Positions 10,869-40,337 of a stretch of 64,000 bases of DNA are shown here, in pieces. Numbering within the stretch: position 1 is the stretch's first letter; each line of letters opens with the position of its first letter. The DNA comes from a virus. The notes under the pieces are model-generated. The model was given only the letters and a program-made list of their open reading frames with translations. It searched no databases and was not told where the DNA came from. Where the stretch lies: positions 1-64,000 of the IMG/VR virus record IMGVR_UViG_3300043411_000704; one strand, given 5' to 3'. A program made the position numbers and the translations under genes.

Positions 10869-11837
10869 TTAAAAATTTCCTTCTTCACACTGAAATACCT
10901 GTAATCCTATTTTACGTTCCATGTCAACTACTTTTTGCCGATCATCAAATACCGCAATTGGAAAATAGTGCGGAGCAATATCATTTTTCAAAATCTCATA
11001 TTTGATAATATCATCGGGGCGCATATCGTTCTGTGGACGCATAAACAATTCAAATGCCACTCCAAAATATTTTTTTAACCACAAGGTCGTCTCTTCTCTA
11101 CAGATAGCATCTCGGCCAGACATAAACACTAATTCTGCCTTGTCATTGCGAAATCCGATGGAACCTGATGGAACGATATGTGATCTACATCTATTAACGA
11201 TATCTATAACCTGTTGCTTGGGTTCATCTTCACCCACTCGTTTCCAGTCAAACGGACCACGACCAACCATTTTAGCGACGGTATTGTCAATATCAACAAT
11301 CAGACACTTAGGTTTAGTCTGATCAAAAATCAGTGGCTCAAATTTATAAGGAACATAATCAACCCATTGATTACACTTTTCATACTTAAATTTCTTGAAC
11401 TGCTCTACCTGATGACGAATCACTTGTTCGCCAACCGCATCTTCTCGGTTTTTATCACGATCAATACAGGTATCTACAGAGACATCAAATCGTTTAACCA
11501 GATATTCAAATCCATCGGGTCCACAATTAGCTTTACACACTTTCAAAATATCTGAAATATATCGTGCTTGTAGATGTGTATTATCTATCACAATATTATG
11601 ACTGGCCTTCATTGAGGCGGATAATGATGCATTCGACATCTCAGTCACCAAATTCTCTATGATATCACGGTATTCTTTAGGTCCAGTCCAATACTCTTTT
11701 AAAGACATATTGATCAAACTCTTGCGGAAATCATCCCGATTGAGACGGATATATCCTTGTGTATCAACCAATGATTTTGCATAGGTCGATTTTCCGCTGG
11801 CTGAAGGGCCGCACAACACTTGTATTTTAGATTTCAT
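10869..11837 (-). CDS. pseT: Polynucleotide 5'-kinase/3'-phosphatase
   Basis: GPSASGKST, NRDDFR, DNTH kinase; DIDNT, SGR, FDDR HAD phosphatase. Confidence 0.93.
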   Translation of the reverse strand: MKSKIQVLCGPSASGKSTYAKSLVDTQGYIRLNRDDFRKSLINMSLKEYWTGPKEYRDIIENLVTEMSNASLSASMKASHNIVIDNTHLQARYISDILKVCKANCGPDGFEYLVKRFDVSVDTCIDRDKNREDAVGEQVIRHQVEQFKKFKYEKCNQWVDYVPYKFEPLIFDQTKPKCLIVDIDNTVAKMVGRGPFDWKRVGEDEPKQQVIDIVNRCRSHIVPSGSIGFRNDKAELVFMSGRDAICREETTLWLKKYFGVAFELFMRPQNDMRPDDIIKYEILKNDIAPHYFPIAVFDDRQKVVDMERKIGLQVFQCEEGNF

Positions 11838-32819: not shown

Positions 32820-33623
32820 TCAAATTTTTCCTAAATATTTTTTAATCAGTTTTTTATTGTTTGTTGTAAAATCCGGTGTCATATCAACATAATTTATCTT
32901 TTTATTATTTTTATGTAATAAAATGAAAGGACTATGACTGACCATGATCACCTGGAAGTATTTGGCAAGTTCGTCCAGAGTATCAAACAATTCAAGTTGT
33001 TTTTCAAGTGAAAGTGCTTTTTCTGGTTCATCCAATAGGACAGTCATAGGTCCAGTTCGTGGTAAACTATTGATATAATTAACTTCAAATTGGGCGATTG
33101 CTCGTTCTTCGGGCGATATAATATTTTCAGGCACGTTGGTCAAACTTGGGGGGTTTTGTAACATTTGCATGATCTTATTAATCTTAGTTATCCTATACTG
33201 TCCTGAACTAGGTTTGGACGCCATTACATCCATTTGTTCGGCTTCTGTAGAAATACCGTCTGATGATTGATCAGGGTTTATAAACCATGTCATATCATTC
33301 TTCCCCATTTGGTCTGAATCGTTGTAAAAAGTTGGTGTGCCGTCCCATTCAATGACCGCATGAGATTTACCCGGTGCATATACATGATAGCAAAACGGAT
33401 AGTGTGACTGATATTGGGACCCAATTTTTGACGGTTCAGAAATTCGGGAAAATCCACCTTTATCAATACCACAATATGCGGCCAGTGTTTTTAATAAAGA
33501 TGTTTTGTTTGTTCCATTCCCACCAACAATCACATTCAATCCTGGTTTGAACTCAAATATTCGATCTTTAATGTTGGGATTATTCATCATAAATCCCGAT
33601 TTAATCATTGCTCGTTTAATCAT
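32820..33623 (-). CDS. ABC/AAA-type ATPase
   Basis: GGNGTNKTS, SSGQ, LLDEPE, VSHS. Confidence 0.85.
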   Translation of the reverse strand: MIKRAMIKSGFMMNNPNIKDRIFEFKPGLNVIVGGNGTNKTSLLKTLAAYCGIDKGGFSRISEPSKIGSQYQSHYPFCYHVYAPGKSHAVIEWDGTPTFYNDSDQMGKNDMTWFINPDQSSDGISTEAEQMDVMASKPSSGQYRITKINKIMQMLQNPPSLTNVPENIISPEERAIAQFEVNYINSLPRTGPMTVLLDEPEKALSLEKQLELFDTLDELAKYFQVIMVSHSPFILLHKNNKKINYVDMTPDFTTNNKKLIKKYLGKI

Positions 33624-35058
33624 TTTTAGGTAGATCCTTACCAATTTTTCGCCAGTCAACGAATGCATTTTTATATAAATCGGACAATTTTACTTCTTTT
33701 TCGTCAAATTGGAAGTTGGTAATACTAAAATTTGGACGATTGTTCTTAATCGGGGTAGGATTATATAGTTTCAACAGACTTTGTGGATTCGCTATGAATT
33801 GAGATTTAATCGTTTCTGCTAATTCTTTATTATCTACAGTTCCTACAATTATAGTATCTGCTTTGCCAAAAAGCCTAGCACTAATAGTCCATTTACCATT
33901 CACTTCTTCAAGTTTAATATCAAACTTATATGCAAATGTTGGATCGACTTCAAGTAACTTTTTATAGTTACTTTTAAATGTCGATCTCAGTCTACCAATG
34001 TCTAAATAACGACTAAAATCAACTACATCAACTTCAGGTGTCGGACATTCGTCTAATATTTTGGTATTGGCATCAATGATATATGCACACTCCAATTCAA
34101 ATTCCCAATCAGCATGATCTCTATTAATTGCCAAAATCTTATCTGATCCTGGACAAGTTAGATATAACATTTTAGATTCGTCCATGATATTTTCTGCTAT
34201 AATAGTGGTCGTCAAATGTGACAACTTTCCGAACCGTGATCCAATAAAACTATATAATTGATCTACTGTTGTGAATTCCATGTCCGAACCTACGTGATAG
34301 GTTCCTGATAGATTTAACAAGTCAATCTCATATGCTGCATTGAATCGCAGATCTGTTAGATTTTTAAATATTTCCTTCAGTTGTTTGAAATCCAGAGCGA
34401 TAACATCTTTCTTGTTATCTGTTGGTTGAATAACGTAAAAACCCTGTTTCACATCGTAAAATTGTATAAACGGAACTACATATTTCTTCAAATATTCTTC
34501 TTTTTCCTGTGCAATCTTTTTAGTATTTTCCGCATCAAGTTCAGCCTTCTTTATAAGAAAGTGTTTTTCTTGCTCATATGCTTCTTGTTCTCTACGAGAA
34601 TATTCAGATAATGCATTTCCACATGCTTTGATTGAATCAGATAAAACCAACTTTTCAACCAAAAATTCACTCTGTGGTATAACTTTAATATTAATTGGTA
34701 TTACTGGATTAATTTTGTCATAACCTGATTTTTTTGATGGCATAATTCCACCTAATTGTAATGAAGATTGATTTCCTAGTCTAGTTCTAAAGTAATCATT
34801 TGTCGATTCAACTACTTCACTGATTTCTTTGTTAATTTCTTGGACTACTGTATTTCTAGTATCCAGCCAAGCACTATATTCAGTTTTTAATTCTTCACTC
34901 AATTTTGTTGGTTTATTGATGAATTCATGTAAAAATTCCTTATATGTTCGTTCTCTGACATCAACATATTCTACTGTCGGGGTCTTTGATGATGATTCAA
35001 AATGTGCTAATAATTTCGTAACACCATTACTATCGGTTAATTCTATTGTTTTTTCCAT
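33616..35058 (-). CDS. Hypothetical protein
   Basis: 480-aa ORF. Confidence 0.75.
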   Translation of the reverse strand: MEKTIELTDSNGVTKLLAHFESSSKTPTVEYVDVRERTYKEFLHEFINKPTKLSEELKTEYSAWLDTRNTVVQEINKEISEVVESTNDYFRTRLGNQSSLQLGGIMPSKKSGYDKINPVIPINIKVIPQSEFLVEKLVLSDSIKACGNALSEYSRREQEAYEQEKHFLIKKAELDAENTKKIAQEKEEYLKKYVVPFIQFYDVKQGFYVIQPTDNKKDVIALDFKQLKEIFKNLTDLRFNAAYEIDLLNLSGTYHVGSDMEFTTVDQLYSFIGSRFGKLSHLTTTIIAENIMDESKMLYLTCPGSDKILAINRDHADWEFELECAYIIDANTKILDECPTPEVDVVDFSRYLDIGRLRSTFKSNYKKLLEVDPTFAYKFDIKLEEVNGKWTISARLFGKADTIIVGTVDNKELAETIKSQFIANPQSLLKLYNPTPIKNNRPNFSITNFQFDEKEVKLSDLYKNAFVDWRKIGKDLPKND

Positions 35059-35084
35059 AAATTTTTATTTAGATGAATTATATT

Positions 35085-35690
35085 TTACATTAATTCTTTT
35101 GCTTGCTCAAACTCAGATTCATCAACTCCTTCCATACTGAAGTTTAATTTACTCATTACATCATCCATTTCAAAAATACCGGTTGATACAGGTCGGTCAA
35201 TTCGTGCCTGCCAATTATGCCATTGAAAATAACTAATTCGGTTATCAAATTCTGTCATGTCACCAACAGGTCGCTCTTTAATAAACGTAAAATTAGATTC
35301 AACTATTTTTACATATTCAGCCGCATTATCTTGATCCATATTAATCACAACCAAAAAATGTTGGTCGTCGTGACCAACATCAAATGTTCTAAAATTTAAT
35401 TGTGGTTTAGTATCTGGCACTTTTAACTGCGGAACTTCTTGATCCGCAATTTTATAACTTTGTCCAAACCCCGGTTCTGAGATTTCAGCATTGACCTGTG
35501 ATACTGAGTTCTTATATTCTTCCAGACCTTTAGATATATATTCTGCCGCATTTAATGCCATTTCGGTATCACCTTTTACTGGACTGTTCAACACTACGGT
35601 ATGTTTCCATAGTTCCATATCTGGGACATCAGACAATCCGATCTCCATTTTCAATTTCTGTTTAATAGTTTCTTCGTCAAACTTGATCAT
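35085..35690 (-). CDS. Hypothetical protein
   Basis: 201-aa ORF. Confidence 0.75.
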   Translation of the reverse strand: MIKFDEETIKQKLKMEIGLSDVPDMELWKHTVVLNSPVKGDTEMALNAAEYISKGLEEYKNSVSQVNAEISEPGFGQSYKIADQEVPQLKVPDTKPQLNFRTFDVGHDDQHFLVVINMDQDNAAEYVKIVESNFTFIKERPVGDMTEFDNRISYFQWHNWQARIDRPVSTGIFEMDDVMSKLNFSMEGVDESEFEQAKELM

Positions 35691-35707
35691 GTTCTATATT
35701 AAACCAT

Positions 35708-35744
35708 AAAAAAACCGATTTCAACTAATTAGTTGAAATCGGTT
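35708..35744 (-). terminator. Rho-independent terminator
   Basis: Perfect 32-bp palindrome 35713-35744 followed by T-tract on the minus strand. Confidence 0.85.
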
Positions 35745-35749
35745 CAAGT

Positions 35750-35990
35750 TTCCTATTCAAAGAGTTATGTAGACAAAATCTAAAACAAAATCAAAGACGC
35801 CATTTTTCTCAAAGACCTAATCAAAATCAAAGACTGGTAATCAATAAATTCCGAAAAATGGCCGATAGTTGTTAGTGGATTACCACCATTTTATTTCATT
35901 CCAAGAAAGCGCTCTATCCAGAGCAAGGTTTTGTATTTTTATGTTCTTTGAATAGGAATAAAGAAAAACTGGTTAGCCAAATTAACCAAC
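35750..35990 (-). ncRNA. Putative structured RNA downstream of the 318-aa gene
   Basis: 14-bp closing stem 35750-63/35945-58, 10-bp stem 35799-808/35853-62, small hairpins, GTCTTTGA x3 at 18-nt spacing. Confidence 0.65.
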
Positions 35991-36008
35991 CGAATTTTTC
36001 ACCTTAAA

Positions 36009-36965
36009 TTATTTACCTAGATTATCAATTTCCTGATAAATGTCTGCCAGTGCATTAGGAATCACAATTTTATATGCCGAGACTTCTCTAATCTTCTCCA
36101 GACGACGAGTTTGAAGAACTGAATTCAGGGATTCTAATTCATTCTGATATTTCTGGAATCGCATATTATATTCTCGCGAAATAGTATCAAACTCATTACT
36201 AGCTTTAACGGATGCTAGGGTAAATTCCCTTTGTAGTTCTGCATTCTTTTCAGTTACCCGATTCTGAATACGTGCCTTATATGAATTCAACTTAGATTCA
36301 TATTCCCGATGTTTGGCTTGAAGATCAAAATATTCCTTATTAATTCGATCTTGGTCGAAATTAGACTTTGCAAACATCGGAATCTCTGTTTGCTGTCCAT
36401 TTTGAAGAATCTTATGGAATCCCACGACTGGCCCACCAGCAAGATCATTCTTGATGTTAGACATCACACCACCCGTATGGATATACTTCCCTATATGGGA
36501 AGCCTGTGCCTCTAGCGCATAATATTCGGCTCTTTCTGCAATGGAAAGTTCACCAACCGCATCGGTTTCAGTCCATGCCTTGACACCAAGAGGTTTATTA
36601 AACACTGGTGCGGTCTCTGTGAATTCTGGAATCTTTTCCTCATCAGTAAGAAATTCAGATGCATCGCATGTTCGATAAAACTCTAGTAATGTTGTCTTTG
36701 CCTTAATTGCTTCTTTAAGCCATGCAGACAGTGCAAAATATCGTCCTTCCTTTGTCCAATCATCAACCTCAACTTGAGTCGAGGTCGTAACCCAATGGGG
36801 CTTGCCATCAAGGACCACATTATAGTTAAATGCTCTTGCACCAGAAAGGCGTTTACTAATGATCGTGTTTTGTTCCTTCAACAAATTACTAATATGATTA
36901 GCATGTGAAGATGAAATTCCTTCTTTTGCGAAGAAAACTAGATTGTGTTTTTGGTTTGTTTTCAT
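36009..36965 (-). CDS. Coiled-coil hypothetical protein (VFF..G.SS..ANHI.NL.KE type)
   Basis: 318-aa helical ORF with its own promoter and downstream structured RNA. Confidence 0.85.
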   Translation of the reverse strand: MKTNQKHNLVFFAKEGISSSHANHISNLLKEQNTIISKRLSGARAFNYNVVLDGKPHWVTTSTQVEVDDWTKEGRYFALSAWLKEAIKAKTTLLEFYRTCDASEFLTDEEKIPEFTETAPVFNKPLGVKAWTETDAVGELSIAERAEYYALEAQASHIGKYIHTGGVMSNIKNDLAGGPVVGFHKILQNGQQTEIPMFAKSNFDQDRINKEYFDLQAKHREYESKLNSYKARIQNRVTEKNAELQREFTLASVKASNEFDTISREYNMRFQKYQNELESLNSVLQTRRLEKIREVSAYKIVIPNALADIYQEIDNLGK

Positions 36966-36974
36966 AAGTTATTG

Positions 36975-37003
36975 ATTATAGTCTATGTGTTTTAGTGTGT
37001 CAA
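36975..37003 (-). promoter_or_regulatory. Consensus sigma70 promoter TTGACA-17-TATAAT
   Basis: ttgaca cactaaaacacatagac tataat, 9 nt before ATG 36965. Confidence 0.85.
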
Positions 37004-37010
37004 GTTAAAT

Positions 37011-37217
37011 TTAGATGAATATTGATCCTTCTTGTCCTGGTTCATTACTATTGGTGCAATTCAACGTGTGGTCCGATGCTTTTGGGCATCTTTTATTTCC
37101 GCATAAAGGACATATAACCATCCACCAAACATACTGGTCCCGTTCACCCACATTAGGATAATTTAATGCATTACACCTGTGGCAATCACACCAATGATAT
37201 TTTTGTTCGGTCTTCAT
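37011..37217 (-). CDS. Small Cys-rich phage protein (CPLCGNKRCPKA..H...C..SNEPGQ.GS)
   Basis: Zn-binding motif pattern. Confidence 0.75.
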   Translation of the reverse strand: MKTEQKYHWCDCHRCNALNYPNVGERDQYVWWMVICPLCGNKRCPKASDHTLNCTNSNEPGQEGSIFI

Positions 37218-37218
37218 T

Positions 37219-38553
37219 TCACATTATATATAGCATTTCTCGTGGTCTTGTGCAAGAGGTATAAAAAATACGTTTTTGTTCATCAATATTCTGATTTAAT
37301 CTGATGTCTGTATAGACAACAAAACAATTGGTGTAGGTGCTCCCTTGGGCTCGATGCCCAGTGATTGAATAATTGAATCCCACGTCTGAGAAATTATCTT
37401 GGAAGCCGAAATATTTACCCCATTTTTGACCTCTACGAACCGCTTCTTTTTCACTTTTTGCATCGTCCGCCAGTTTTTTCAATACCTGTTGGTATATTTT
37501 TTGAGACTTTTCATGTAAAATATGAATATTATGTGCCTCTTCTTCGGATTCAACTGCTGCATCATAATAATGAAACTGATGCCCGTATAATTCTTTCTGG
37601 CTAACGGTTAATCCTAATACTTCAAGGTCTTCATTTGTATTATATAATATTTCATCTGGTGAATCTCCTTTGATCGGTCGATTCACCACCAGTTTTTCAC
37701 CGATCACAATTTTGGGTGCATTCATACCGTATTTCATACCCCGTATAAGTTGGTTAAAATTATCAACCACCACATTTCTCCAACTAATGACCTTACAATG
37801 ATCTGCATTGTTATCAAATTCGGTTGAACAGAAATAATGTTTTAACAACGTGTTAATAACCTCTGGTTGATTTTTATTCAAAATCGCAACACCTTGGTGA
37901 TCAATCACATTTTTTTGTCCAATATTAAACTGAAATTCATTTTTTAAAATTTGTTGAGAAGTCTCAATAATAGGATTACCCTTTGCCTGTCTAACAATTT
38001 CAGTCAATTCATATTGTTTAATCCCATATTTTTCTCTCTGATCCTCCAACATAGGAATCGAATGTTCGTGATTAACCGGATTAATCTGATTTTTATCACC
38101 AATGAATATAATTTTCACACCCCGATAATTCTGATCTTCCATCTCATGGAACAATTCGTCTGCCAACATAGAAGACTCGTCTACAAAGATAATATCATAT
38201 AGTGCAAATTTTGATGGACTACTTTTATCTCTTTCATACACTTCTTTACCGTTGTTAGTGATCTTATGTTTTAGACCTAGTAATGAATGAACTGTTGTGA
38301 ACTTGACCCGTGCCTGATCTTCTGGAGAAAACATCTGTTTAATCACACGCAGGGCTTTATTTGTGGGGGAAATCACTGCAATATTATTATGAGCCGCCTC
38401 ATTGATAATTTTACTAACTAATTGAGTAGTTAGTAACGATTTACCGCTACCAGCAGGTCCATTTAATAGTGCCTTATGGTAGTCTTGATCACCCTGGACA
38501 AATTTCCAAAGGTTATCAAATATCGGTTGTTGATGTTCTGTTAGTTTTATCAT
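37219..38553 (-). CDS. dda: Dda-like SF1B helicase
   Basis: GPAGSGKS, PTNKA, TVHSLL, DESSM, GDKNQI, EIVRQ, HRAQGST, YTSCTR; start MIKL at 38553. Confidence 0.9.
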   Translation of the reverse strand: MIKLTEHQQPIFDNLWKFVQGDQDYHKALLNGPAGSGKSLLTTQLVSKIINEAAHNNIAVISPTNKALRVIKQMFSPEDQARVKFTTVHSLLGLKHKITNNGKEVYERDKSSPSKFALYDIIFVDESSMLADELFHEMEDQNYRGVKIIFIGDKNQINPVNHEHSIPMLEDQREKYGIKQYELTEIVRQAKGNPIIETSQQILKNEFQFNIGQKNVIDHQGVAILNKNQPEVINTLLKHYFCSTEFDNNADHCKVISWRNVVVDNFNQLIRGMKYGMNAPKIVIGEKLVVNRPIKGDSPDEILYNTNEDLEVLGLTVSQKELYGHQFHYYDAAVESEEEAHNIHILHEKSQKIYQQVLKKLADDAKSEKEAVRRGQKWGKYFGFQDNFSDVGFNYSITGHRAQGSTYTNCFVVYTDIRLNQNIDEQKRIFYTSCTRPREMLYIM

Positions 38554-38558
38554 GTCGT

Positions 38559-38855
38559 TCACCAAGAAATTGTGGTGTAAGTTAATCCGTTGATAGTATG
38601 TGTTGTTATATAACAAACTATTCTCAATTTAATATATTTTTTAATATAATTAAATTCATCTATTGAGAAATCACACTCGACCGCTTTCAGCTTTTCAAGA
38701 TACCATCTACCATCGGATAGGGCATCATATTCCATACTATTAGTAATCAGTTGAATACTGCATTCATTATTAATTGAAATTCTCTTTATCATTCGGATAA
38801 TAGTGTTTGCATAATCTTGCAATTCTATTATTTGATCAGCCTTTAAACGTTTCAT
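38559..38855 (-). CDS. Hypothetical protein
   Basis: 98-aa ORF. Confidence 0.5.
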   Translation of the reverse strand: MKRLKADQIIELQDYANTIIRMIKRISINNECSIQLITNSMEYDALSDGRWYLEKLKAVECDFSIDEFNYIKKYIKLRIVCYITTHTINGLTYTTISW

Positions 38856-38883
38856 ATAAATTTTGAAATTAATAGTAATCTAA

Positions 38884-39498
38884 CTATGATATGCACCCAT
38901 TCATATGTTTAGCTAACCATGTCATTGATGGTTCGTCAAGAAGATCTGCCGCCACTGATTCGGCTGATAAATCATCAACCACATCTAAATCCATTTTATT
39001 CTTGATCTTCGGTATATAATACTCCACCCTCTCACGACCATCAATGGCGGTCGTCTTTTTAGCTGCTTCAACGACATCATCAAAATATTGAACAGGTTGT
39101 CTGTGCCAGAAAAATTGACGAATTGGTTTATCCAAAACCATCACACAAATAGGAAGCCAGAACGGAACGACAATTCTATAGTGACGTTTAACACCTTCTA
39201 AACAATGAGCAGTCTCATTATTAATCCTCATATTATAATAAGTGTTCTTTCTATTGTTTAGAAACCTAGTTATTCTGTTCACAAAGTCTTCTGCTTTACT
39301 CTGATCATCAGTGAATAAATCTAAATCACCTGGAATTTTGATCGCTTTCTTTCTAGTGATTGCCATTGCAATACTTCCACCAAGTGCAACACCAGACTGT
39401 TGTGCAATTTTTAAAACCAAAGAATTCTTTATAATCCATTCATTTCCTACAGACCCATAAATTTCTTGTAATGCTGTTATTTTTTTAGGTATAGTCAT
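38884..39498 (-). CDS. Putative nucleotidyltransferase (Pol-beta superfamily)
   Basis: LGGSIA...PGDLDLF (GS + DxD). Confidence 0.6.
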   Translation of the reverse strand: MTIPKKITALQEIYGSVGNEWIIKNSLVLKIAQQSGVALGGSIAMAITRKKAIKIPGDLDLFTDDQSKAEDFVNRITRFLNNRKNTYYNMRINNETAHCLEGVKRHYRIVVPFWLPICVMVLDKPIRQFFWHRQPVQYFDDVVEAAKKTTAIDGRERVEYYIPKIKNKMDLDVVDDLSAESVAADLLDEPSMTWLAKHMNGCIS

Positions 39499-39501
39499 AT
39501 T

Positions 39502-39882
39502 TTAATGGTAATGTGATAGGATAAATAATTTATTGTGCCAAACTTTTTCATCTGACTTGATGAATCTGAGCAAACCCTTTTCGTTCAACCATTTACAAGT
39601 GTTTTCCATATATTGATCATCAATTTTATGCGGTGATAATTCTGTAAAGTCTAACATTTCGTCACCCCATTCAGACCCAACTGCAATACAATATCCGGCA
39701 ATACAATAATCATTATTCATTCCATCATATAAAATGCCCATCGTATTTTTTGCACCTTTTCCACACCATGGGAATTTTAGAGGCTCGATAAGATTATTAT
39801 AAATCTCGTCATCACAAGTTTCAATTTTATCCAAATCTAATTGGACACCGTAAATTATATATGTTTCTGCTAGTGTGCCCAT
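39502..39882 (-). CDS. Hypothetical protein
   Basis: 126-aa ORF. Confidence 0.7.
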   Translation of the reverse strand: MGTLAETYIIYGVQLDLDKIETCDDEIYNNLIEPLKFPWCGKGAKNTMGILYDGMNNDYCIAGYCIAVGSEWGDEMLDFTELSPHKIDDQYMENTCKWLNEKGLLRFIKSDEKVWHNKLFILSHYH

Positions 39883-39884
39883 AT

Positions 39885-40337
39885 TTATTCACTTTTAATT
39901 CTTTTTGTATCGTCCAAAAATTCGGTTAAAAATTTCTTATTTCGTTCTAATTCTCGTAATTGTGCAGCTTCTTGATAGGGAATATAAAATGCATTATAAA
40001 GTCTTTCCATATCCTTTTCTGAAAAAAAGGTATACCCATATTGAAACATATAAACTTCGTTATAAGAAATTTTCTGCAACGAATATGACAAACATTTATG
40101 TTCATATAAACTAAAGACAGATGAATTAACAACCCATTCAGATGGAGGAAATTTTTTTAGATCCTCGATAACAGTATCAACTATTTGTTTAGATAATTTA
40201 TCTTTCTCTGATAATTCGGGTATATTAATTTTTACTTCTGGTATATCGTTAGAATAATCAGATTCAGTTTGTGAACAACATTGTGGATTTCCAATTATCG
40301 AATCCCATACTAGTTTCAATTTTTGTTTTATACTCAT
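39885..40337 (-). CDS. Hypothetical protein
   Basis: 150-aa ORF. Confidence 0.7.
   Translation of the reverse strand: MSIKQKLKLVWDSIIGNPQCCSQTESDYSNDIPEVKINIPELSEKDKLSKQIVDTVIEDLKKFPPSEWVVNSSVFSLYEHKCLSYSLQKISYNEVYMFQYGYTFFSEKDMERLYNAFYIPYQEAAQLRELERNKKFLTEFLDDTKRIKSE

Follow-up and report, generated by a model that had tools for sequence, protein, structure and literature searches.

What does a T4-like phage gain from keeping a structured stretch of non-coding nucleotides between a gene and its terminator, and does the resulting RNA work with the protein encoded in front of it? On the minus strand of this phage fragment, one consensus promoter is followed by a gene for a 318-aa protein, a hairpin, a non-coding element of ~210 nt and a strong terminator. 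Throughout, the window is the whole stretch of 64,000 nucleotides that was analysed. The unit has the following features, in the order of transcription:

36975-37003, minus strand: sigma-70-type consensus promoter, TTGACA-17-TATAAT, 12/12 match
36009-36965, minus strand: gene for the partner protein, 318 aa
35963-36000, minus strand: hairpin H0, immediately 3' of the stop codon; terminator-like here, and part of the conserved element
35945-35958, minus strand: 5' strand of the closing stem P1, in perfect 14-bp pairing with 35763-35750
35911-35924, minus strand: candidate hairpin A, 5-bp stem with a GGAU loop, possibly like a shortened tRNA D arm
35875-35886, minus strand: candidate hairpin B, 4-bp stem with a UAAU loop
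35853-35862, minus strand: 5' strand of the inner stem P4, 10 bp with 35808-35799; covaries across loci
35811-35834, minus strand: hexamer cluster A, four units in the 3' part of the P4 loop, sharing the register of cluster B
35799-35808, minus strand: 3' strand of P4
35769-35798, minus strand: hexamer cluster B, single-stranded, five units (GUCUUU GAUUUU GUUUUA GAUUUU GUCUAC)
35750-35763, minus strand: 3' strand of P1
35706-35744, minus strand: intrinsic terminator, a 16-bp stem (35744-35713) followed by a U run; closes the gene-plus-RNA unit

An earlier note on this DNA had described the perfect promoter, the 318-aa gene, the perfect 14-bp closing stem, the 10-bp internal stem, two small hairpins (35924-35911 and 35886-35875), the strong terminator and a 6-nt periodic array. 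All of these lie where it placed them, and the hairpin directly after the stop codon (36000-35963) had escaped it. The promoter at 37003-36975 is the sole perfect match to TTGACA-17-TATAAT within the 64-kb window. Since the ATG of the 318-aa gene lies only 9 nt past the -10 box, the mRNA is nearly leaderless; locus L082 keeps the -35 box, the spacing and this 9-nt distance. Hairpin H0 abuts P1 and leaves no space for a separate promoter, and thus the RNA must be co-transcribed with the gene.

A Dda-like helicase gene adjoins the 318-aa gene in the window, and in other phages the neighbours of the homologous gene are DNA polymerase A, an XPD-like helicase or a PHP-domain protein. The gene-plus-RNA pair frequently lies within tRNA clusters.

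A conserved RNA fold behind the gene

Folding of the full 311-nt stretch in the window is far better than that of shuffled sequences (z = -6.6). P1 and P4 recur in the same positions behind homologous genes at ~70 diverse phage loci whose sequences are unrelated, and a non-coding gap of 350-700 nt lies 3' of the gene in every locus inspected. Two P1 pairs that are A-U in the window have become C-G and U-A in L082, both of them compensatory changes, and other loci carry stems of 10-21 bp at the P1 site with unrelated sequence.

We aligned 45 crAss-like sequences by MAFFT independently of the proposed model and then applied RNAalifold, which recovers P1, P4 and further hairpins. Paired cells in this alignment amount to 97.9%, compared with 38-47% when the partners are slid, and both-sided changes are seen in 22 base pairs, compared with 4-8 when slid; 0/500 shuffles attain the observed values of pairing and covariation. 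The H0-equivalent hairpin of the crAss-like loci also shows compensatory changes (helices 1-2). P1 is rich in G-U pairs, one of which is GU in 36 of the 45 sequences. Because G-U pairs become A-C mismatches on the opposite strand, the fold can be assigned to the gene strand.

An anchored helix search, run in Python with the array as anchor and with shuffled controls, covered 71 representative loci. One helix ends directly 5' of the array and another begins directly 3' of it, again with unrelated sequences. The P1 score is 28 (shuffles, 18.2 ± 3.6) and the P4 score 20.4 (shuffles, 14.9 ± 3.1). Taken singly, 63% of the loci for P1 and 45% for P4 lie above the 95th percentile of the shuffled controls, a shortfall which implies that the fold differs in some lineages or that the anchoring fails. 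A covariance model built from the window and L082 only gave matches at E < 0.05 in 14 other loci, all of them just downstream of the homologous gene and on the same strand. When the four closest RNAs were aligned with MAFFT alone, RNAalifold returned no structure, because that alignment is not a structural one.

Together, these comparisons demonstrate the fold of the RNA, its conservation and its linkage to the gene, and the element is a genuine structured RNA. The earlier note had named structure downstream of homologs, covariation and an Rfam search as checks on its reading of a stand-alone protein-plus-RNA unit; the first two are found, the Rfam search gave only chance-level matches in the window at E up to 10, and the unit is indeed kept as a pair in many unrelated phages. 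The linkage could be explained by co-transcription alone. Among the smaller elements, the covariance model aligns hairpin A with the true D arm of a tRNA-like module in locus L153, which hints at a likeness, and a GUAAUCC hairpin that may correspond to hairpin B is found in L083 and as an insert in some crAss-like loci.

GTC is the trinucleotide recognised by T7 primase, and the repeats contain it. One could therefore read the locus at the DNA level, as origin iterons or as a structured single-strand priming signal, and the helicase, polymerase and PHP-domain neighbours would suit such a replication element. We consider this very unlikely. The 6-nt spacing does not match the helical repeat of DNA, the abundant G-U pairs are strand-specific, the D and T arms of tRNA type in some relatives make sense only as RNA, and a promoter and a terminator enclose the unit. 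Moreover, the cumulative GC skew of the window turns near 41-42 kb, away from the gene-plus-RNA locus.

The hexamer track and the tRNA-like modules of relatives

Between P4 and P1 runs a track with the register GNNNUN, in which G1 and U5 are fixed. At 35798-35769 it is the top hexamer-array site on both strands of the window, scoring 24 versus at most 20 for any separate site, which agrees with the array described in the earlier note. That note had also seen GTCTTTGA recurring every 18 nt, and there are three copies on the gene strand at exactly this spacing; the count of the 8-mer GTCTTTGA by itself is unremarkable, with a window total of 4 versus 3.2 expected. Tandem Repeats Finder reported no array in the window, because the hexamer units are degenerate.

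The periodicity extends well beyond the window. Over 71 loci, the G-G autocorrelation peaks at lags 6, 12 and 18 (1.40, 1.23 and 1.18; other lags, 0.84-1.10). The linker from P4 to P1 has a median length of 32 nt (IQR 30-38), and the 5' domain varies between 10 and 160 nt. None of the 45 crAss-like sequences departs from G1 or U5; variation within their track is low and mostly two-state (per-position entropy ≤0.41), and one unit of the five differs between the window and L082. The cluster B track is preserved in very divergent loci, and units comparable to cluster A occur 5' of the 3' strand of P4 in other loci. As judged from these sequences, the track is conserved, not hypervariable.

This conservation bears directly on the idea of a programmable guide, in which a protein filament on repeat RNA would expose variable unit positions to read a target nucleic acid. 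Such an arrangement is brought to mind by a phage protein gene next to a tandem-repeat RNA whose units each combine fixed with variable positions, and VIPR proteins are reported to make filaments along repeat RNAs (10.64898/2026.04.26.720927). Here, the period is 6 nt and not 5, there is no GGY motif, only five units are present, and the fold searches described below gave no RAMP-type match. We regard a guide of this kind as highly improbable and rejected it for the lack of hypervariability in the track.

Since the track is unique in the window, there are no obvious further targets in it, and the transcript itself is the sole visible one. The RNA might accordingly be a cis element on its own mRNA, either a 3' stabiliser or an operator for autoregulation by the protein, with no separate particle. 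This would be in keeping with H0 abutting P1, with the RNA having no promoter of its own, and with the single promoter and single terminator that bound the unit. A stabiliser, though, needs neither a hexamer track of fixed length nor a covarying multi-helix fold nor a tRNA-like module, and known 3' stabilisers are much simpler structures. It is difficult to see how translational feedback would work from a site past the stop codon, at a long distance from the start of the gene. For these reasons, a cis role seems to us quite improbable.

A canonical T arm is found together with a closed acceptor stem and a D arm in three relatives, L153, L002 and L057. A T-loop-like motif occurs in 7/78 genome loci, and the tRNA-like module is absent from the window and from most loci: the window RNA has no acceptor stem or T arm, and only the D-arm-like hairpin at 35924-35911. 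Two of these relatives reach sub-threshold scores for RF02553 (40.5 bits for L057 and 31.8 for L153, versus a gathering score of 69); positions 33000-40000 of the window gave no RF02553 match at E up to 10.

No PF05731 (TROVE/Ro60) gene was found in the 80-kb record that contains the window, which is 31% complete, so that a distant copy could be missed. The five records of related phages that were searched, of which three are 94-100% complete, also gave none; control genomes matched. Bacteroides thetaiotaomicron, the named control genome of this search, encodes a TROVE (Ro60-type) protein, and most cellular-genome matches fall in its phylum. GNCGAA(N)G near the 5' end of YrlA is the Rsr-binding site (PMC4201824). 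There is no CGAA anywhere in 36010-35700 of the window, and hence no GNCGAA motif.

On another view, the RNA would act without its neighbour protein, as a decoy or sponge for a widely conserved host factor; RNases, PNPase, ribosomal protein S1 and tRNA-handling enzymes are examples. The factor would prefer U-rich single strands or tRNA shapes, and the 3' untranslated position would serve strong expression only. The track is U-rich, the pair is often found in tRNA clusters, and tRNA-like modules such as those of L153, L002 and L057 are recognised in YrlA by host tRNA enzymes (PMC4201824); a Ro60-type TROVE protein is present in B. thetaiotaomicron and missing from the phage records searched. 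If the decoy stood alone, its separation from the gene would be expected, yet gene and RNA stay linked across T4-like phages, crAss-like phages and Bacteroidales bins, and neither the tRNA-like module nor the Rsr-binding motif is present in the window RNA. A decoy of this sort is, in our judgment, unlikely. The earlier note had suggested an RNA decoy or anti-defence role, for which we found no support: the protein matches no defence family and nothing points to a target.

The order of elements in L153 is closing-stem strand, T arm, acceptor 3' strand, loop, acceptor 5' strand, D arm, inner domain and closing-stem strand, which we take to be the topology of a two-piece (circularly permuted) tmRNA gene. 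A separate canonical tmRNA lies upstream at locus L005. The resemblance of L153 raises the thought of a tmRNA-like or small coding element, in whose track GNY and NUN codons would alternate to encode a short hydrophobic peptide. Translated in this way, the units give Val/Asp/Ala/Gly in turn with Phe/Leu/Ile, and the last is often Val-Tyr with would-be synonymous changes. The same register carries stop codons, on which ground we rejected this reading: the L063 group has GUCUAA three times, and the window has an in-register GAUUAG. In addition, a start codon is missing, the two repeat clusters are in many cases separated by a number of nucleotides not divisible by three, the third acceptor pair of L153 is U-G, where alanine charging needs G-U, and the window RNA has no tRNA-like domain and no tmRNA by ARAGORN or Rfam. 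Coding is thus barely credible.

The partner protein and a possible particle

In the 318-aa protein, an alpha/beta part on the N-terminal side is followed by a helix of 92 residues and by a conserved C-terminal motif in which P303 is invariant. Its predicted fold is helical with two beta hairpins, and the long segment is predicted as a single helix spanning residues 205-296; this helix is the one feature behind the earlier label of a coiled-coil gene. The family comprises 1127 clusters (50% identity), with lengths of about 290-330 aa throughout. At 25-30% protein identity, the gene-plus-RNA pair is shared by crAss-like and T4-like phages and by many genome bins of Bacteroidales.

The protein has no match in Pfam, PHROGs, NCBIfam or PADLOC, and DUF7873 does not stand among the first 25 families tabulated per member, either for 20 members (E up to 1) or for 39 diverse ones (E up to 0.1). 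A search of the ESM Atlas yielded nothing usable, and a profile search of PDB sequences gave coiled-coil noise only. A protein search of the phage collection returned two matches, both unannotated, and near and distant DNA searches of the same collection returned none. For the fold searches, we used models of the whole protein (pLDDT 90.5) and of its N-terminal 204 residues (pLDDT 72). With both, Foldseek (PDB, BFVD) and VIA-align wide yielded only coiled-coil or helical-hairpin matches (Z ≤8.3), together with one uncharacterised phage homologue, and no recognisable RNA-binding fold. No RAMP or Cas7 chain stood among the fold matches listed for either model, a search in which a distant relation could be missed. 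A likeness of the N-terminal model to ribosomal protein S7, seen in several Foldseek rows at E about 2-4, was taken as no evidence. The predicted complex of two copies scored 0.31 (mark, 0.42) and was given no weight for or against.

Protein and RNA are thus both missing from Pfam, PHROGs, NCBIfam, PADLOC and Rfam, in agreement with the earlier note, which could assign the unit to no named family, and literature searches returned no description of the pair. We see about an even chance, the highest of any reading here, that the unit encodes both parts of an undescribed ribonucleoprotein in which the protein reads the hexamer track, a binding step suggested by the anatomy. Oligomerisation of the protein on the hexamer array, as the earlier note had imagined, would fit the fixed length of the track and its fixed G1 and U5.

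We then propose a model for such a particle. From the strong early promoter, a single transcript would carry the 318-aa gene and then the ~210-nt RNA. The RNA would fold into the long P1, the variable 5' domain and the inner P4, and these helices would present the five-unit GNNNUN track between P4 and P1, with two to four further units in the P4 loop. One copy of the protein may then occupy each unit of the track through contacts at G1 and U5, so that the two flanking helices would set the number of copies. The variable 5' domain may dock a host factor, for which some relatives would offer a back-to-front look-alike of tRNA. Given that replication and tRNA genes surround the pair, the particle may act early in infection, in nucleic-acid or tRNA-related metabolism.

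It is tempting to go one step further and speculate that a non-RAMP protein polymerises in a strict 6-nt register along the five units delimited by helices and grips G1 and U5, so that the remaining bases form a short, non-contiguous reading head for a nucleic acid or a tRNA-handling host machine. We regard this as a rather long shot; if true, the particle would be an independent invention of the Cas7/Vipr principle in crAss-like and T4-like phages. crAss-like phages are the most abundant phages of the human gut, and the pair ranks among the more widespread unexplained modules of tailed phages. A track of fixed length and 6-nt period, with a helix on either side, suggests that protein and RNA assemble in a defined stoichiometry open to direct test, and such an assembly, if it exists, would account for the unannotated 350-700-nt 'empty' gap in the genomes that carry it.

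Comparison with known systems

Type III toxin-antitoxin systems of the ToxIN kind, to which the earlier note had likened the unit, combine tandem direct repeats of ~34-36 nt with a ToxN/AbiQ-type endoribonuclease. We found no support for this candidate: Tandem Repeats Finder gave no such tandem array, and the protein has no PADLOC, Pfam or PHROG match to a toxin or defence family. Two-piece tmRNA differs as well, in that the window RNA has no tRNA-like domain, a G3-U70 pair is missing, ARAGORN and Rfam identify no tmRNA at the window locus, and some tracks hold in-frame stops.

TRAP and HutP of Bacillus are oligomeric proteins that read short repeats 5-6 nt apart on single-stranded RNA. Their RNAs are leaders that control downstream genes through termination, whereas the RNA here lies between the gene and its terminator, and they are small beta-rich rings unrelated to the 318-aa protein.

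YrlA with Ro60/Rsr (RF02553; Chen et al. 2014, PMC4201824) shares more of the architecture. In both cases, the 5' and 3' ends of the RNA pair as a long closing stem around a pyrimidine-rich interior, the RNA is encoded beside a dedicated protein gene on one strand, often amid tRNA genes, and the order of T arm, closed acceptor stem and D arm recurs in the relatives L153, L002 and L057. Yet the partner protein is unrelated to Ro60, YrlA has no counterpart of the hexamer track or of P4, and the window RNA has no tRNA-like module, GNCGAA motif or RF02553 match. The pair may nonetheless connect to Y-RNA-like tRNA mimics, whose function in bacteria remains unclear.

VIPR is a minimal, mainly phage-encoded locus of a Vipr protein and a vrRNA (10.64898/2026.04.26.720920, 10.64898/2026.04.26.720927), whose units are 5 nt long (YNNGG), come in runs of 9-16 and have hypervariable NN positions (10.64898/2026.04.26.720920, 10.64898/2026.04.26.720927). 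An array is defined there by at least 4 tandem 5-nt units of YNNGG or a related consensus. Both systems occur mainly in phages and pair a protein gene with a flanking non-coding RNA whose core is a tandem series of short units mixing fixed and variable positions; the Vipr protomers polymerise along the repeats to form filaments (10.64898/2026.04.26.720927), and a similar assembly may be envisaged here. The differences lie in the units, which are 6 nt long (GNNNUN), five in number, conserved and without a GG or GGY motif, and in the protein, as Vipr is a RAMP with an RRM core, a G-loop and a thumb, and the 318-aa protein is predicted to be helical, with no RAMP among the fold matches listed. 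No accessory vap gene is evident at the locus.

The pair fits none of YrlA/Ro60, VIPR, tmRNA and type III toxin-antitoxin. In the Cas7 backbone of class 1 CRISPR effectors, the subunits hold single-stranded RNA in a 6-nt register, and thumb domains are reported to disrupt pairing at every sixth position. The track shares the 6-nt spacing; there is here no CRISPR array, there are no cas genes and no fold similarity was found, and the RNA has a fixed sequence rather than a spacer. If the proposed assembly exists, it would stand beside the CRISPR-type and VIPR-type complexes as a third type of phage repeat-RNA particle.

The transcription unit and its phage

The pair, a gene for a 318-aa protein and the non-coding RNA behind its stop codon, occupies the minus strand of the window.

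Elements of the pair in the window
37003-36975 (-): promoter TTGACA-17-TATAAT, the sole perfect match within the 64-kb window
36965-36009 (-): open reading frame of the 318-aa protein
36000-35963 (-): H0, a 38-nt hairpin directly after the stop codon, abutting P1
35958-35945 with 35763-35750 (-): P1, the closing stem, perfect 14 bp
35862-35853 with 35808-35799 (-): P4, the inner stem, 10 bp
within the RNA (-): two small hairpins
35798-35769 (-): hexamer track, five units, the best hexamer-array site of either strand in the whole window
35744-35706 (-): terminator, 16-bp stem and U run

The promoter, gene, both stems, small hairpins and terminator listed in the earlier note are all seen in the sequence. 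Its hexamer array is seen too, the five-unit track being the window's single best such site. The count of the recurring 8-mer alone is not significant, and Tandem Repeats Finder reports no tandem array in the window. The ATG lies 9 nt past the -10 box (region 36963-37003, -) with no Shine-Dalgarno sequence, so the mRNA would be nearly leaderless, and the same promoter-to-start geometry is found in the 77%-identical relative L082 (1162-1202). The RNA stretch folds far better than shuffled sequences (z = -6.6). Since H0 abuts P1, the RNA has no room for a promoter of its own and must be co-transcribed with the gene; a purely cis-acting 3' element is one rival reading of such an arrangement.

The source of the window is a T4-like phage. 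Among the genes of the window, which is part of a virus record of 80,256 bp (judged 31% complete, ~34% G+C), are those for a family B DNA polymerase, a DnaB-like helicase and RNase H, together with a late sigma factor, a polynucleotide kinase and an SbcC-like nuclease subunit. The kinase is of the T4 Pnkp type (10869-11837, -; phrog_505, E 1.4e-83), so a capacity for RNA/tRNA repair is encoded on the stretch that also holds the RNA. Upstream of the pair lie a Dda-like SF1 helicase (37219-38616) and, between it and the promoter, a 68-aa Cys-rich ORF with CxxC-type spacing and no family match (37011-37217, -). Downstream are genes of 201 aa and 480 aa, both without a family match, and then a 282-aa ABC-type ATPase (32820-33668, -), whose start overlaps the 480-aa ORF (33616-35058, -) and in which only the two ends, the Walker A region and the C-terminal motif, match the defence ATPases AriA, PtuA and GajA.

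The protein family and the RNA behind it

Searches of Pfam, PHROGs, NCBIfam and PADLOC gave no match to the 318-aa protein, and we found no description of the pair in the literature, in agreement with the earlier note, which had assigned it to no named family. A word search gave 23 clusters of relatives and a profile search 1127 clusters at 50% identity, in which nearly all members are 290-330 aa long; among the families listed for 39 diverse members, neither Pfam DUF7873 nor another informative family appears. In the confident AlphaFold2 model (pLDDT 90.5), a helix/beta-hairpin/helix unit is predicted twice, along with one helix of 92 residues (205-296) and a short, conserved motif at the C-terminus, and fold searches with the whole model or its N-terminal part returned nothing beyond coiled-coil resemblance.

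Relatives occur on ~95-100 kb contigs from human gut samples, which we took to be crAss-like phages from their size, source and one BFVD match, and on larger phage contigs. Those in cellular genome bins are mostly from Bacteroidales, the closest being from a Flavobacteriales bin (37% identity). Neighbouring genes differ among phages and are often replication genes (DNA polymerase A, XPD-like helicase, PHP-domain protein) or tRNA clusters. On the crAss-like contig L005, a canonical tmRNA (2180-2564; RF00023, 59 bits, ARAGORN tag DNTYRVAA), with two tRNA-Arg genes next to it, precedes the gene of the homologous protein by ~450 nt.

Collecting homologues and modelling the DNA downstream, the check suggested in the earlier note, showed that the structure recurs. 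A covariance model built on the window and L082 alone matched 14 further loci at E below 0.05, each just downstream of a homologous gene on the same strand; all matches with E below about 0.8 occupy this position, apart from the reverse strand of L081/L082, where the sequence from which the model was built lies. At 77% protein identity, L081 and L082 retain the element in full, with two compensatory changes in P1. In L083 (40% identity) and L084 (34%) the layout is the same and the stem sequences differ: P1 is 14-15 bp and 10-11 bp, respectively, P4 covaries, and GUCUUUG-type units flank the P4 3' strand on both sides.

For 45 crAss-like sequences, MAFFT alignment and RNAalifold, given no input of our own model, recovered H0, P1 (18 bp), a hairpin of 9 bp and P4, as well as smaller helices. 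Paired cells amount to 97.9%, against 38-47% with slid partners, and both-sided pair changes to 22, against 4-8; the observed values were reached by 0/500 shuffles. The G-U pairs in which P1 is rich would be mismatches on the opposite strand, and thus the fold belongs to the gene-strand transcript, a point that speaks against the rival of a replication element at the DNA level. Across 71 representative loci, we located the best hexamer array and then the helices ending just before and starting just after it; P1 scored 28 (18.2 +/- 3.6 in shuffles) and P4 20.4 (14.9 +/- 3.1), with stem sequences unrelated from locus to locus. Both helices are strong in 35 loci; there, the median length is 16 bp for P1, 32 nt (IQR 30-38) for the single-stranded linker from P4 to P1 and 222 nt for the whole element, and the 5' domain spans 10 to 160 nt.

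The hexamer track is conserved, not hypervariable. In a model-guided alignment, five consecutive hexamers directly follow P4 in very distant loci, and likewise in almost all representatives; in the crAss-like alignment, G at position 1 and U at position 5 never change and the remaining positions vary a little (entropy 0.34-0.41), and a single unit distinguishes the track of the window from that of L082. In the region 100-350 nt past the stop codon, G-G autocorrelation computed without anchoring has its peaks at lags 6 (1.40), 12 (1.23) and 18 (1.18), all other lags giving 0.84-1.10. Together, these results show that the gene strand carries a structured RNA with a common architecture and a fixed hexamer track, and that this RNA is tightly linked, in very distant phages, to members of a single protein family. 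The linkage speaks against the rival of a decoy RNA that acts on a host factor independently of the neighbouring protein.

The clearest pure repeat is found in L063, L066 and relatives, where the track, ~170-200 nt past the stop codon, consists of three exact GUCUAA copies. These in-register copies rule out a coding reading, as does GAUUAG, likewise in register, in the window; moreover, the two clusters of repeats often do not share a triplet phase. In the window, UCAAAGA (35945-35951), at the inner end of the 5' strand of P1, is complementary to its own partner and to all three GUCUUUGA copies (35791-35834), so alternative pairings are possible in this lineage; two of them are weakened in L082.

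tRNA-like modules

A tRNA-like module is an optional part of the element. In L153, the segment from P1 to P4 is a whole tRNA body whose parts are permuted: the 3' strand of the anticodon stem comes first, then the variable loop, the T arm, the 3' acceptor strand, a loop of 11 nt, the 5' acceptor strand, a canonical D arm and the 5' strand of the anticodon stem. L002 and L057 have a similar module, and the window RNA has at most a D-arm-like hairpin; a T-loop motif occurs in few genome loci. YrlA-type Y RNAs share the permuted arrangement of L153 (PMC4201824), and the Rfam YrlA model matches L057 and L153, both below threshold. No TROVE/Ro60 gene was found in the window's record, which is 31% complete, or in five related phage records.

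CrAss-like loci have, in place of this module, an aberrant tRNA-like gene directly after P1, as in L005 (4162-4231; ARAGORN call tRNA-???, two-base anticodon) and at the corresponding site of about 35 crAss-like loci (alignment columns 292-380). In a subset, the anticodon region of this gene contains a ~17-nt insert whose GGAGUAAUCC hairpin is similar to hairpin B, one of the two small hairpins in the window RNA.

A possible particle and known systems

We consider the chances about even that protein and RNA form a particle of the following kind: protomers would read the hexamer units along the single-stranded track, the flanking helices would set the number of protomer copies, and the 5' domain would serve as an adaptor.

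Of the rivals to the particle, the protein-independent decoy ranks first, followed by the cis-acting 3' element, the DNA-level replication element, a VIPR-like guide and, last, a tmRNA-like element. The pair lacks the defining features of tmRNA, and also those of type III toxin-antitoxin systems, an option raised in the earlier note. It is like VIPR in principle but does not have the 5-nt units and hypervariable positions of that system, and no RAMP was among the fold matches listed. In layout the pair is similar to Ro60/Y RNA, whose defining features it lacks.
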